Position numbers and translations under genes: made by a program. From the NCBI RefSeq assembly GCF_029227855.1, contig NZ_CP074356.1: a stretch of DNA of 64,000 nucleotides; one strand, 5' to 3'. The DNA comes from Escherichia coli (GTDB lineage: Bacteria; Pseudomonadota; Gammaproteobacteria; Enterobacterales; Enterobacteriaceae). Positions 25,241-32,678 of this stretch are shown one piece after another (within the stretch, counting starts at the first letter, position 1; the number at the start of each line of letters is the position of its first letter). The notes under the pieces were generated by a model that did not search any database, had not been told where the DNA came from, and worked only from the letters and a program-made list of their open reading frames with translations.

Positions 25241-25550
25241 AACAATTTCCCTTCATTGAATGAATGGAGATTTACCCAAAAACATTTCGGGCGGGATCGA
25301 GTATACACAACTAAAGCATGCGAATTACGGCGCGGGGAATTAGAGATGGGGTTTTAGGATAATTGGAATGAATATCAAATATAAGCTACAACTTATATAT
25401 AAATAACATTAAAAATCATAATGTTAAAATAAAAGTAAAAGTAATTAATCTGAGTATTTTCCGAAATCAATCACGATTAAAAATCTATTTTAGGATTAAC
25501 CTCACGGTATGATTTCCGTTAAATCACAGACAAGGGGATTTATCTGATAA

Positions 25551-25579
25551 AACAATGCCGACATAACGTCGGCATTGTT
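25551..25579 (-). terminator. Intrinsic terminator downstream of pgi
   Basis: Perfect hairpin aacaatgccgac-ataa-cgtcggcattgtt about 15 nt after the pgi stop. Confidence 0.6.
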
Positions 25580-25594
25580 ATTAAGGTTTTTAAA

Positions 25595-27469: not shown

Positions 27470-27745
27470 CTGCGCTAGCGCAGGCCAGAAGAGGCGCGTT
27501 GCCCAAGTAACGGTGTTGGAGGAGCCAGTCCTGTGATAACACCTGAGGGGGTGCATCGCCGAGGTGATTGAACGGCTGGCCACGTTCATCATCGGCTACA
27601 GGGGCTGAATCCCCTGGGTTGTCACCAGAAGCGTTCGCAGTCGGGCGTTTCGCAAGTGGTGGAGCACTTCTGGGTGAAAATAGTAGCGAAGTATCGCTCT
27701 GCGCCCACCCGTCTTCCGCTCTTCCCTTGTGCCAAGGCTGAAAAT
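27470..27745 (+). promoter_or_regulatory. lysC leader containing the lysine riboswitch (L box); boundaries approximate
   Basis: Long GC-rich structured 5' UTR directly upstream of lysC with conserved-looking segments (agaggcgc..., ...gggggtgcatcgccgaggtgattgaacggctgg...); the E. coli lysC leader is an established lysine riboswitch. Confidence 0.65.
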
Positions 27746-27768: not shown

Positions 27769-29118
27769 ATGTCTGAAATTGTTGTCTCCAAATTTGGCGG
27801 TACCAGCGTAGCTGATTTTGACGCCATGAACCGCAGCGCTGATATTGTGCTTTCTGATGCCAACGTGCGTTTAGTAGTCCTCTCGGCTTCTGCTGGTATC
27901 ACTAATCTGCTGGTCGCTTTAGCGGAAGGGCTGGAACCTGGCGAGCGATTCGAAAAACTCGACGCTATTCGCAACATCCAGTTTGCCATTCTGGAACGTC
28001 TGCGTTACCCGAACGTTATCCGTGAAGAGATTGAACGTCTGCTGGAGAACATTACTGTTCTGGCAGAAGCGGCGGCGCTGGCAACGTCTCCGGCGCTGAC
28101 AGATGAGCTGGTCAGCCACGGCGAGCTGATGTCGACCCTGCTGTTTGTCGAAATCCTGCGCGAACGCGATGTTCAGGCACAGTGGTTTGATGTACGTAAA
28201 GTGATGCGTACCAACGACCGATTTGGTCGTGCAGAGCCAGATGTAGCCGCGCTGGCGGAACTGGCCGCGCTGCAGCTGCTCCCACGCCTCAATGACGGCT
28301 TAGTGATCACCCAGGGATTTATCGGTAGCGAAAATAAAGGTCGTACAACGACGCTTGGCCGTGGAGGCAGCGATTATACGGCAGCCTTGCTGGCGGAGGC
28401 TTTACACGCATCTCGTGTTGATATCTGGACCGACGTCCCGGGCATCTACACCACCGATCCACGCGTAGTTTCCGCAGCAAAACGCATTGATGAAATCGCG
28501 TTTGCCGAAGCGGCAGAGATGGCAACTTTTGGTGCAAAAGTACTGCATCCGGCAACGTTGCTACCCGCAGTACGCAGCGATATCCCGGTCTTTGTCGGCT
28601 CCAGCAAAGACCCACGCGCAGGTGGTACGCTGGTGTGCAATAAAACTGAAAATCCGCCGCTGTTCCGCGCGCTGGCGCTTCGTCGCAATCAGACTCTGCT
28701 CACTTTGCACAGCCTGAATATGCTGCATTCTCGCGGCTTCCTCGCGGAAGTTTTCGGCATCCTCGCGCGGCATAATATTTCGGTAGACTTAATCACCACG
28801 TCAGAAGTGAGCGTGGCATTAACCCTTGATACCACCGGTTCAACCTCCACTGGCGATACGTTGCTGACGCAATCTCTGCTGATGGAGCTTTCCGCACTGT
28901 GCCGGGTGGAAGTAGAAGAAGGTCTGGCGCTGGTCGCGTTGATTGGCAATGACCTGTCAAAAGCCTGCGGCGTTGGCAAAGAGGTATTCGGCGTACTGGA
29001 ACCGTTCAACATTCGCATGATTTGTTACGGCGCATCCAGCCATAACCTGTGCTTCCTGGTGCCCGGCGAAGATGCCGAGCAGGTGGTGCAGAAGCTGCAT
29101 TTTAATTTGTTTGAGTAA
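27769..29118 (+). CDS. lysC: Lysine-sensitive aspartokinase III
   Basis: 449 aa ORF MSEIVVSKFGGTSVADFDAMNRSADIVLSDANVRLVVLSASAGITNLL... Confidence 0.97.
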   Translation: MSEIVVSKFGGTSVADFDAMNRSADIVLSDANVRLVVLSASAGITNLLVALAEGLEPGERFEKLDAIRNIQFAILERLRYPNVIREEIERLLENITVLAEAAALATSPALTDELVSHGELMSTLLFVEILRERDVQAQWFDVRKVMRTNDRFGRAEPDVAALAELAALQLLPRLNDGLVITQGFIGSENKGRTTTLGRGGSDYTAALLAEALHASRVDIWTDVPGIYTTDPRVVSAAKRIDEIAFAEAAEMATFGAKVLHPATLLPAVRSDIPVFVGSSKDPRAGGTLVCNKTENPPLFRALALRRNQTLLTLHSLNMLHSRGFLAEVFGILARHNISVDLITTSEVSVALTLDTTGSTSTGDTLLTQSLLMELSALCRVEVEEGLALVALIGNDLSKACGVGKEVFGVLEPFNIRMICYGASSHNLCFLVPGEDAEQVVQKLHFNLFE

Positions 29119-29262
29119 TATTTCCCTACTGGCGTATAACGCTCACCGATTGTTATACGCCATCCTCACTGAAAACATAGATTAAATAATATCTGAAAAG
29201 CAAAATCACTCCTGTAGAACAGTATTATAATCACCGAAAAATATCATTTAACAGGAGTGTTA

Positions 29263-30189
29263 ATGGCTACTTTAATGGAAAAAGATGCACTTTTAAACGG
29301 AGCCAGTCAGTGCATCGCGTTTTTATCAAATATCATTGATAATTGCTCAGTTTCGTCGCATCAGGATTCAGGCGATGCTCTCAAGCGATTAGTCAGCTAT
29401 CGCGATTATCTTTATTCTACCCCCGCTGAACTTGTTGATTTTACACAAGGTAAGATTCTCCTTCAGCAGGTAAGAACTCAATATCAGCATGAATTCAACA
29501 ATACTACGCATTCAGAAAATAAAGCATCTTTTGATTCTATTTGGCAGCGTCTGACAAATCATGAAGTCACACCGCAACAGCATCCCATTGGTTTTGTTTT
29601 AGGTGGGCAACCCGGAGCAGGTAAATCATCTCTGATTGAATTAGCCAAAAGAGAGACAAAAGATAATATAATGATTATTAACGGTGATGATTTTCGATTT
29701 CTACACCCTGATTTTAATTATATCTACCAAAATTATGGGGATGATTTTGTTACCCATACAGCGAAATTTTCCGGCGAAACGGTCGAACGTGCAATTGAGA
29801 GAGCGATAGTCAGTAAACTCAACATTGTTGTCGAAGGAACATTTCGTAATGCCGCGACGCCGTTACAAACATTAAAAAAACTCAAAGATGCAGGCTACCA
29901 AACAGAAGTCATGATAAAAACAACCTCAGCGGCATTAAGCTGGGAAAGCACCAATGAACGGTATAGTAAGGACAAAGAGGCGGGAAATATTGCCCGAAAA
30001 GTGGATAAAAACCACCATGATATCGTCACCGGTTTGCTGGCAGAAAATGCCCGCAAGGTGTTTGCTTCGAACCTGTCAGATAAGTTTGCGGTGTATTCGC
30101 GTGAGAAGATGATATTTAGTTCACAAGCGGCAACGAATGACGATATTGCAACACTTATACAGAATGAAATCAGCGGGAATACACAATAA
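29263..30189 (+). CDS. Zeta-toxin-like P-loop kinase with an N-terminal extension of about 100 aa; accessory, AT-rich
   Basis: Walker A GGQPGAGKS, Walker-B-like hhhhEG (NIVVEGT), overall zeta/PezT-like layout; ATG at 29263 preceded by aggag; the ORF track extends to a GTG at 29257; markedly lower GC than lysC. Confidence 0.7.
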   Translation: MATLMEKDALLNGASQCIAFLSNIIDNCSVSSHQDSGDALKRLVSYRDYLYSTPAELVDFTQGKILLQQVRTQYQHEFNNTTHSENKASFDSIWQRLTNHEVTPQQHPIGFVLGGQPGAGKSSLIELAKRETKDNIMIINGDDFRFLHPDFNYIYQNYGDDFVTHTAKFSGETVERAIERAIVSKLNIVVEGTFRNAATPLQTLKKLKDAGYQTEVMIKTTSAALSWESTNERYSKDKEAGNIARKVDKNHHDIVTGLLAENARKVFASNLSDKFAVYSREKMIFSSQAATNDDIATLIQNEISGNTQ

Positions 30190-30224
30190 TAATAAGAGCT
30201 GATGGCGTGAAATAACGCCGGGCT

Positions 30225-31025
30225 TTATGCCCGGCGCATTACCGTCTGGTACATTAAGCTATCCAGTTCCTTAACGTCCCCTTCTCTGCTATCCGGTAAC
30301 AGCGGTGGAATTTCCCCACGCGCCTGTTCCGCACGAATAAACGCATGTAACAATGGACGGCGCGGACCATATTCCGCTTCTCCTGCGCGCTGTTTACGTT
30401 CCAGTAATTCGTCTATTTCTGCACGTAACGGCGCATCAAGTTCGCTTCCCGCCAGTAACTCAGCAAAGCGCATTGGCGGCACGCCTTTTCCCGCTTCGAC
30501 CCAGCGCACGGCCAGCAGCGGACGCAGCACGTAAAAGTATTTTTTCAGTCGAACTTCATCGCCCTGCAAATATCCGCGGAAGTTTTTCTGCGCCATCGAA
30601 TAGTAATGCCAGCGCGCACGCAGCGGAGAAAACCACATTGGGACCATTGCCTTAAGCGCCGTTATCGTTTCTTCATCTTGTTGATAGACCACCGGAGAAT
30701 CCAGCCATTCTATCAGCGTCGGGTTCGCGCCTTTCAATAATCCCAGCGCCTTACGCCACTCCCAACCGGAAACATCTAACTCGTCGTCGATGGGCAGCTC
30801 GATAACATCGCGCGGCGGCTCCACCCGCAGATACCATTCCAGCGGGTGAACATACAAAAACCGTACATCGTAGTCGCTGTCGGGCGAGGCAAACCCCCAG
30901 CCGCGGCTCCCGGATTCACAGGCATACAGCACTTTCACGCCGTAGCGCCGTTCTATTTCTTTTAACTGCTGCGATACCCGTTCGCGCATCGCAGCACTGA
31001 CTCCATTTAATGGCATGTTACTCAC
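30225..31025 (-). CDS. Pol-beta-superfamily nucleotidyltransferase-fold protein (minimal NTase plus helical C-terminal region); accessory
   Basis: Motif YACESGSRGWGFASPDSDYDVRF (G[GS]...D.D NTase signature); starts at GTG 31025 overlapping the upstream stop (GTGA) or at ATG 31016. Confidence 0.65.
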   Translation of the reverse strand: MSNMPLNGVSAAMRERVSQQLKEIERRYGVKVLYACESGSRGWGFASPDSDYDVRFLYVHPLEWYLRVEPPRDVIELPIDDELDVSGWEWRKALGLLKGANPTLIEWLDSPVVYQQDEETITALKAMVPMWFSPLRARWHYYSMAQKNFRGYLQGDEVRLKKYFYVLRPLLAVRWVEAGKGVPPMRFAELLAGSELDAPLRAEIDELLERKQRAGEAEYGPRRPLLHAFIRAEQARGEIPPLLPDSREGDVKELDSLMYQTVMRRA

Positions 31026-32149
31026 CCTTTGATATTAACCAACCCATGCAGAACCTGATCCAGACCGCCAAATACAGAGATGTTATCGATCCGCTCAGCC
31101 ACTCTCTCCAGCGTTTCTAGCTCTTTTAAACGCAACGCTACCGGATTGTTCTCCATGACTTTGGCGGTGTTCAGTAACGAGCGCGTCGCTGCCGTTTCTT
31201 CACGTCGGCGAATCACATTCGCCTGCGCAGATTTCTCCGCCTCAACCAGCTGCGCAAGGATATTTTTCATATCGCCAGGCAGGACGATATCTTTCACCCC
31301 TAATGAAGCAATCTCCATACCAAATGGCAACATGCGCGATTTCACCTGTTCGCTGACAACGTCATCAATGACCTGTTTATCTTCCAGCAGTTCATCCAGC
31401 GTACGAGTACCTACCGCTTCACGCAGGGCAAATTGCAATTCCCGATACAAATGATCAATCGGCTTCGTTAACTGACTAAATGCCAGCAACACGTCGCTGT
31501 AGCGCCAGTTAGCGGCGAGATTAATCCGCAGATTGACCTTATCTTTCGTTAAGATTTCTTGCCCGCTGACTTCCAGTACCTGCAAGCGGGTGTCGACAAC
31601 TTCAGCCTCAACCAGATGATTTATTTTCCAGTATGCTGTCAGCCCCGGCGGTAACAGCGCCTGCGTTTCACCATCGATTTTCAGCACGCCTACATGCCAG
31701 GCCGGAACCTGCACCGTGAGTATCGCATCGCGGCCTTTAACTGCCCCTTTGCGCCGTGGTTGCAATACCGCATTCATCACCTCCGTTTGTACCTGGACTT
31801 GCTGCGTATTCATCCGCACCAGTGTCAAATCATCTTCTACACGCCAGTACAAACGGCGCGTTGATGGCGGCAGAATCTCCAGCAAAATACCGTCCATATA
31901 CAACGCCCCGGCTTCAATCTCCGACAAGTCTGCCACCAGGCAATATTTCTCCACCCAATCAGGCTGAAAGCGGCGCAAATAATCCGCCAGCACGTCGGGA
32001 ACTTCGCTGCCATCGAGCGTAATCAGCAAGACTTCTGGCGTATTTAACCAGGGTAAAAGATGCTCGCCTGCATGCAGCACTTTGTAGTAATCGCCATTTC
32101 TGGAGAGTAATGCCAGCTGATCTTTTCTTACGCTTATTTTCTTAATCAT
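31022..32149 (-). CDS. SPFH/band-7 (stomatin/prohibitin/flotillin-like) domain protein without an obvious N-terminal transmembrane segment; accessory
   Basis: C-terminal half (...LTKDKVNLRINLAANWRYSDVLLAFSQL...GMEIASLGVKDIVLPGDMKNILAQLVEAEKSAQANVIRRREE...) resembles SPFH domains; RBS-like aagga 6 nt upstream of ATG at 32147-32149. Confidence 0.65.
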   Translation of the reverse strand: MIKKISVRKDQLALLSRNGDYYKVLHAGEHLLPWLNTPEVLLITLDGSEVPDVLADYLRRFQPDWVEKYCLVADLSEIEAGALYMDGILLEILPPSTRRLYWRVEDDLTLVRMNTQQVQVQTEVMNAVLQPRRKGAVKGRDAILTVQVPAWHVGVLKIDGETQALLPPGLTAYWKINHLVEAEVVDTRLQVLEVSGQEILTKDKVNLRINLAANWRYSDVLLAFSQLTKPIDHLYRELQFALREAVGTRTLDELLEDKQVIDDVVSEQVKSRMLPFGMEIASLGVKDIVLPGDMKNILAQLVEAEKSAQANVIRRREETAATRSLLNTAKVMENNPVALRLKELETLERVAERIDNISVFGGLDQVLHGLVNIKG

Positions 32150-32678
32150 TATCTATTCCTTGCTTAACAGCCGTCGCGGAAGCAGACACGAAGCGACAGG
32201 GGAATTCCCTTTTGCCTGTTACCCGGCATCTTTATCGGCGACGTTATCGGGGATCGCTGACTGCGCAATCCCTCACTTTTTATTTAATAAGTTAAAACCA
32301 GTATTCATTTCAGGAATGAATGTGGGAATCGAACCCATAATTGGCGTCAAAGGCTGACGGAACACGCCCGGAAAACAGCCTGGCCGTTCCTGGTGTGCCG
32401 ACGGGGTTTGACCCCCTTTGTAATTCAGTTTCAACGCGTACGAGATATTGCGAGAAGCGTGCCAGAATTGAGAAAAAATTATTAACCAAATGAAAAATAA
32501 AGATTTAATAAATTATTTTTGTTTGTAGAGGGAAAACTTTTCGCTAAATTTGTATCTGTATTTATCGTCAATTATCAAGAAAGATAAATATTTAAGAAGA
32601 GAACAAAGGAATATTATCAGTTCAGCTCGCAAACGAATTCCCGTACACTGAACTCTCTGGCTCACTGAGGGCACCATC

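Follow-up and report, generated by a model that had tools for sequence, protein, structure and literature searches.

EzeT, a zeta/PezT-type kinase joined to its own N-terminal antitoxin domain, encoded beside lysC in Escherichia coli

EzeT of Escherichia coli, reportedly described by Rocker and Meinhart in 2015 in Molecular Microbiology (97:589), is the system to which we assign the gene at positions 29263-30189 of a DNA stretch of 64,000 nucleotides from contig NZ_CP074356.1, referred to here as the window. The epsilon/zeta system of plasmid pSM19035 (1GVN, 3Q8X) has in common with EzeT the kinase core and the equivalents of K46, D67, R158 and R171, and is unlike EzeT in being a plasmid-borne operon of three genes, omega, epsilon and zeta, with epsilon a free protein. 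In PezAT of Streptococcus pneumoniae (2P5T) the antitoxin PezA is a protein of its own and has a helix-turn-helix (HTH) repressor domain at its N-terminus, whereas EzeT is one polypeptide without the HTH. The ng_epsilon1/ng_zeta1 pair of Neisseria gonorrhoeae (6EPG/6EPH) and AvrRxo1 share with EzeT a distant P-loop kinase fold (Foldseek E-values 4e-4 to 5e-3, TM about 0.4); as matches they are far weaker, they differ from EzeT in substrate or in the site phosphorylated (C4'-OH; NAD), and they have unrelated antitoxins.

The open reading frame (ORF) list places the gene on the plus strand, from an ATG at 29263 to a TAA at 30187-30189, with a product of 308 residues. The DNA of the island in which it lies (29119-32678) matches several complete E. 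coli chromosomes at 100% identity, among them NZ_CP049343.1, in which the RefSeq coding sequence at the matching coordinates is WP_000212693.1, labelled 'zeta toxin family protein'. This accession is named 'the dual TA EzeT' among the experimentally validated PezT/zeta homologues in a 2023 article of FEMS Microbiology Reviews (PMC10532202), where the aspartokinase 3 gene is also stated to adjoin ezeT in E. coli B1 strains. From the exact DNA match and the name given to that accession, the gene of the window is therefore ezeT. Its product agrees with described EzeT in sequence, in the length of 308 residues, in the two-domain layout and in the site beside lysC, and no difference has been found. 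The gene is thus the chromosomal single-chain type II toxin-antitoxin EzeT, and the feature is far beyond chance; the absence of an antitoxin gene, to which the initial annotation had drawn attention, is real, has been accounted for since 2015 and is an already known finding. The parts of the gene are as follows.

29263-30189, plus strand: ezeT coding sequence, from the ORF call, 308 codons and TAA, product identical to WP_000212693.1
29263-29511, plus strand: N-terminal cis-acting antitoxin domain, residues 1-83, predicted three-helix bundle (4-27, 34-52, 60-78)
29512-30186, plus strand: zeta/PezT-type UDP-N-acetylglucosamine (UNAG) kinase domain, residues 84-308, with the Pfam PF06414 core at 101-282
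29602-29628, plus strand: Walker A P-loop GGQPGAGKS, residues 114-122, K121 corresponding to zeta K46, nearly invariant in 42 sequences
29686-29688, plus strand: codon of catalytic Asp142, aligned with zeta D67 and PezT D66 (1gvn_B, 2p5t_B)
29836-29847, plus strand: GTxR motif G192-T193-F194-R195, substrate-binding loop, corresponding to zeta G117-R120, nearly invariant

The kinase assignment made from the DNA alone is supported. The Zeta_toxin profile PF06414 matches residues 101-282 with an E-value of 1.8e-40, and similarity to PezT begins at about residue 80; among PDB sequences PezT (2p5t_B) is matched with an E-value of 5e-33 and zeta (1gvn_B) with 5e-27. The P-loop, which had been placed near residue 110, lies at residues 114-122. 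The GTxR loop would bind the substrate, as in the zeta-UNAG structure 3Q8X. R233 and R245 align with R158 and R171 of zeta, two arginines which bind phosphate in the zeta structures. An alignment of the catalytic residues had been proposed in the initial annotation, and all of them are present: K121, D142, G192-R195, R233 and R245 are nearly invariant in an alignment of 42 homologues. The profile match, zeta fold, Walker A lysine, catalytic aspartate, GTxR motif and two phosphate-binding arginines that define the PF06414 zeta/PezT class are all found in EzeT. A catalytic role of the equivalent Asp67 of zeta has been described (PMC5923241). The PezT equivalog model of NCBIfam (NF041574) scores EzeT at 130.2 bits (E-value 7.5e-38), under its curated cut-off of 470 bits, and by this score EzeT is a relative of PezT and not a PezT equivalog.

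Searches of the PDB by sequence and with Foldseek found no structure of EzeT. An AlphaFold2 model built from the 42-sequence alignment is a confident two-domain one, with a mean pLDDT of 91.8 and a pTM of 0.90, in which three long helices (4-27, 34-52, 60-78) and a short linker precede the kinase core. By Foldseek the modelled core superposes on zeta 1gvn_B with a root mean square deviation of 1.8 A over 218 columns at 30% identity, and matches PezT 2p5t with a TMt of 0.80. The comparison with zeta, PezT and AvrRxo1 that had been suggested thus places zeta and PezT well ahead of AvrRxo1 and of the gonococcal zeta.

The first 100 residues or so had been described as unrelated to the kinase, and residues 1-100 indeed have no Pfam match, including none to Epsilon_antitox (PF08998). 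The family of this N-terminal domain is small and isolated by sequence, comprising 15 representatives at E-values up to 1e-3 among 1.84 billion proteins, and its profile finds neither epsilon nor PezA among PDB sequences at E-values up to 10. The predicted fold resembles PezA, with the antitoxin parts 9% identical and without detectable sequence similarity. The domain is homologous to free-standing proteins that occupy the antitoxin position in two-gene relatives of ezeT.

That no small gene stands between the lysC stop and ezeT is borne out by the 144-bp spacer (29119-29262), in which a search with a minimum of 20 residues gave no credible small gene; the ORFs seen were one of 37 codons starting inside lysC (29072-29185) and one of 22 codons on the minus strand. 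The canonical two-gene layout of epsilon/zeta or PezAT is accordingly absent at ezeT, where the next upstream gene is lysC and the antitoxin is neither of PF08998 nor an HTH-containing PezA.

The activity of the identical protein has been reviewed. The C-terminal domain is a UNAG kinase like zeta and PezT according to the authors' mini-review and two independent reviews, one of them PMC10532202. The reviews state that full-length EzeT is harmless, and that EzeTdeltaN83, which is without residues 1-83, lowers viability, permeabilises the cells and leads to accumulation of UNAG-3P. Residues 1-82 supplied separately are reported in a review to restore growth, and the toxicity is reported there to be confined to temperatures below about 30 °C. 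The proposal of a regulatory domain fused to the kinase as its extension thus agrees with what the reviews report of the identical protein, in which residues 1-82/83 are a cis-acting antitoxin. A fusion relationship is called 'most likely' in the mini-review of the authors.

The relation between the fused and the two-gene forms could be followed at the nucleotide level. The closest homologues without the N-terminal domain (P0025-P0028) are about 69% identical over the kinase and start at about residue 87 of EzeT; two of them are preceded by an 82-residue ORF, with an overlap of 11 nucleotides at the kinase start. At three loci (L003, L005 and L006) such two-gene relatives consist of an 82-residue antitoxin and a kinase of 232-266 residues. 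The 82-residue products are 49% and 56% identical to residues 1-80 of EzeT (E-values 2e-26 and 1e-29), and the relatives share with EzeT the opening 13 residues MATLMEKDALLNG as well as the Shine-Dalgarno sequence and the -10 element. The difference lies at the junction, where the relatives have two ORFs with an 11-nucleotide overlap and do not have the 11 nucleotides that join the frames in ezeT.

29503-29513, plus strand: 11-nucleotide segment ACTACGCATTC, codons T81-T82-H83-S84, from the junction DNA alignment and a codon check, its placement being ambiguous by a few nucleotides

The extra ACTACGCATTC of ezeT falls exactly at the ATG...TAA/TAG overlap of the split pairs; it brings the kinase and antitoxin frames into register and removes the stop. 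On the sequence level this junction alignment is direct evidence for the fusion relationship. One split pair lies between queD and queE of an enterobacterial chromosome and the other in a ParB/PsiA plasmid-like region. The latter (L005/L006, 1-8801) is a plasmid- or integrative-conjugative-element-like region with a 663-residue ParB_N protein, PsiA and a PcfJ-like protein. A tblastn search of PLSDB found no true plasmid with an EzeT homologue above 60% identity, and because no close homologue is present there this element is unrepresented among sequenced plasmids. Two close PLSDB matches were rejected as cases of plasmid carriage, both being multi-megabase records mis-filed as plasmids.

Fused forms occur also outside E. 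coli. A homologue from Pseudocitrobacter is 59% identical to EzeT overall, and more divergent fused forms with different linkers were identified (P0133 and P0149). The distance tree and the identity matrix place EzeT, the fused form of Pseudocitrobacter and the split pairs at nearly equal distances, close to a trichotomy, and favour neither fusion nor fission as the later event. From the 11-nucleotide junction difference and the fused forms in at least three other divergent lineages (Pseudocitrobacter, P0133 and P0149) we tentatively suggest, holding it to be rather less probable than its opposite, that a cis-acting antitoxin is a state which this family enters or leaves through one small indel; this point is possibly unreported.

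The region upstream of ezeT contains the following signals.

29226-29231, plus strand: -10 hexamer TATAAT, perfect, with no recognisable -35, read from the sequence as a likely weak ezeT promoter
29253-29257, plus strand: Shine-Dalgarno sequence AGGAG, 5 nucleotides before the ATG
29207-29259, plus strand: inverted repeat CACTCCTGT / ACAGGAGTG, arms 29207-29215 and 29251-29259, from the repeat search

A review reports that the ezeT promoter appears to be a -10 hexamer without a -35 element, and the consensus scan called no full sigma-70 promoter at ezeT. The TATAAT hexamer and the Shine-Dalgarno stretch ACAGGAGT are conserved upstream of the split relatives. The inverted repeat brackets the -10 element and pairs with the Shine-Dalgarno sequence of ezeT, with a predicted RNA fold of -17.5 kcal/mol (z -3.46); conservation of its left arm does not extend beyond E. 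coli, and this arm would be present only on transcripts reading through from lysC. The repeat may serve as an operator, or it may form a hairpin by which translation of such read-through transcripts is silenced. Two other hairpins flank the gene. A perfect 10-bp one at 29131-29161 (GGCGTATAAC, an 11-nucleotide loop, GTTATACGCC) lies just past the stop of lysC and lacks a T-run; it is missing from the K-12 spacer and kept in a strain with a divergent ezeT allele (L010). A GC-rich hairpin at 30217-30235 (GCCGGGC, loop TTTAT, GCCCGGC) lies between ezeT and the convergent RlaP gene downstream of it, the stop codon of which it overlaps; it is a possible bidirectional terminator and was not called by the consensus scan.

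The gene order of the window around ezeT is pgi (minus strand), a lysine riboswitch, lysC (plus), the variable island, yjbD (plus) and rluF (minus). Two genes share the island with ezeT.

30225-31025, minus strand: RlaP-family nucleotidyltransferase, PF10127, E-value 1.7e-94
31022-32149, minus strand: slipin/SPFH protein, forming a two-gene operon with RlaP by the ORF call, with a 4-nucleotide overlap

This operon is convergent with ezeT and not co-transcribed with it. The remark that ezeT is rich in A and T against lysC is confirmed by GC contents of 40.3% for ezeT, 54.4% for lysC and 51.2% for the window.

The distribution of the island was surveyed in 5426 complete E. coli genomes. ezeT is encoded in 1433 (26%), always in one chromosomal copy, and 1424 of these hold at least 80% of the whole island. 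RlaP and slipin are found in 1631 of the 5426; about 200 E. coli genomes have the pair and not ezeT, and P2-like tail and baseplate genes fill the slot. K-12 has none of the island, the common part being only about 150 bp next to yjbD, and the homologues of other genera are without RlaP and slipin neighbours. The EzeT allele is full length and at least 99% identical in 1370 of the 1433 genomes, against only 166 of 1631 in which the neighbours reach 99%, and the GC content of ezeT is 40% against 54% and 50% for the two neighbours, that is 10-14 points lower. Because of this higher uniformity and different GC, ezeT looks like a separate module, and these sequence features suggest that it was acquired or has spread separately from the adjacent operon, and recently.

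Disrupted copies were also observed. In strain CUWW06 (L010, 3501-4947) ezeT is cut short by IS1 and the allele is only 87% identical; in strain EC21Z-014 (H16, NZ_CP101274.1) it is interrupted by an IS5-family element. From these disruptions we conclude that ezeT can therefore be lost without harm. In protein clusters at 90% identity, the cluster holding the exact EzeT sequence also holds many LysC proteins of 449 residues, with a representative of 449 residues; this mixed cluster is a clustering artefact, perhaps from a chimeric or read-through gene call.

The mechanism can be proposed as follows. Residues ~84-308 phosphorylate UNAG in an ATP-dependent manner to UNAG-3P, and peptidoglycan synthesis is blocked, with lysis as the outcome, as the literature has shown for the identical protein. 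Residues 1-83 would form a three-helix bundle tethered to the kinase and holding it off, inhibition in cis and in trans being reported in the literature. Because of the PezA-like predicted fold and the conservation of the first helix, which includes the invariant TLMxKDxL, we infer that the N-terminal domain would occlude the nucleotide site in the manner of epsilon and PezA. Release of the toxin would need this domain to be cleaved, unfolded or displaced. Transcription would start from a weak promoter with the -10 element only. The gene is a low-GC single-gene module, which about a quarter of E. coli genomes have beside lysC, and is tied by the 11-nucleotide junction indel to two-gene pairs of other enterobacterial chromosomes and of a plasmid-like element. 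To this account as a whole, of a zeta/PezT-type kinase restrained by its own N-terminal domain and related by an indel to two-gene pairs, we assign a probability of roughly 0.93.

An extension of this account, that EzeT as described serves in abortive-infection phage defence at low temperature, as prophage-derived cargo in which infection triggers the loss of the N-terminal domain, is considered unlikely. It draws on the P2-like tail and baseplate genes found in the same slot in other strains, and on the strain-variable occurrence and low GC of the locus; several toxin-antitoxin systems act in defence. Against it, the PADLOC models gave no convincing defence-system match to EzeT, RlaP or slipin, the best for EzeT being an E-value of 8e-4 over 46 residues with no stretch passing alone. 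No close EzeT homologue was found by tblastn in 50,697 phage records, and because the matches there were distant streptococcal kinase-only homologues alone, the idea of prophage cargo is unsupported.

It is very improbable that ezeT is a decaying or domesticated remnant, its kinase no longer a toxin and either silent or engaged in housekeeping phosphorylation. The weak promoter, the reported absence of toxicity at 37 °C (review), the insertion-sequence interruptions or truncations in some strains and the lack of a known physiological role would fit such a remnant; but the residues for catalysis and for substrate binding are all intact and nearly invariant, 1370 of 1433 genomes have the gene at full length and with at least 99% identity, and the truncated protein causes lysis and produces UNAG-3P (review). 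Neutralisation of the kinase in trans by RlaP (30225-31025) and slipin (31022-32149), with the N-terminal extension in another role, had been offered as an option in the initial annotation and might draw on the near-constant co-occurrence of the three genes in E. coli (1424 of 1433 with at least 80% of the island), but it is close to refuted and has no support left because the N-terminal domain alone rescues in trans (review), the split relatives and the fused protein of Pseudocitrobacter occur in unrelated contexts without RlaP or slipin, about 200 genomes have these neighbours with P2-like tail genes in place of ezeT, the contrast in GC and allele diversity is sharp, and the two units are convergent and not co-transcribed.

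The lysC-yjbD spacer (29119-32530, starting at the lysC stop and ending about 150 bp short of yjbD) is by these observations a three-state variable site in E. coli: empty, as in K-12; with ezeT, RlaP and slipin, in about 26% of genomes; and with P2-like tail/baseplate genes, RlaP and slipin without ezeT (L009, L011 and L012). The repeat search gave only short, chance-level matches as flanking direct repeats of the kind that an insertion leaves. A motif in the spacer between slipin and yjbD (GGGAATCGAACCC, 32320-32345) resembles a tRNA T-arm and might mark an old integration site; as a tRNA remnant it was rejected, ARAGORN calling no tRNA and Rfam giving no match at E-values up to 1. Homologues of RlaP at about 44% identity are present in Pseudomonas jumbo phages. 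Other known RNAs of the window are the lysine riboswitch, a complete rrn operon with tRNA-Glu (minus strand), the small RNAs STnc490 and STnc430, and several naRNA4/REP copies, for which these coordinates are listed.

27481-27677; 50100-55110; 10479-10602; 25437-25586: known RNAs, among them the lysine riboswitch preceding lysC

For EzeT, the kinase restrained by its own N-terminal domain, the current analysis adds a confident model with a PezA-like N-terminal bundle, a link at the nucleotide level to two-gene relatives, and population figures. These additions are modest and the understanding of the EzeT system is unchanged by them. The wider meaning is one that has been in the literature since 2015, namely that a toxin taken for an 'orphan' may have its inhibitor built in.
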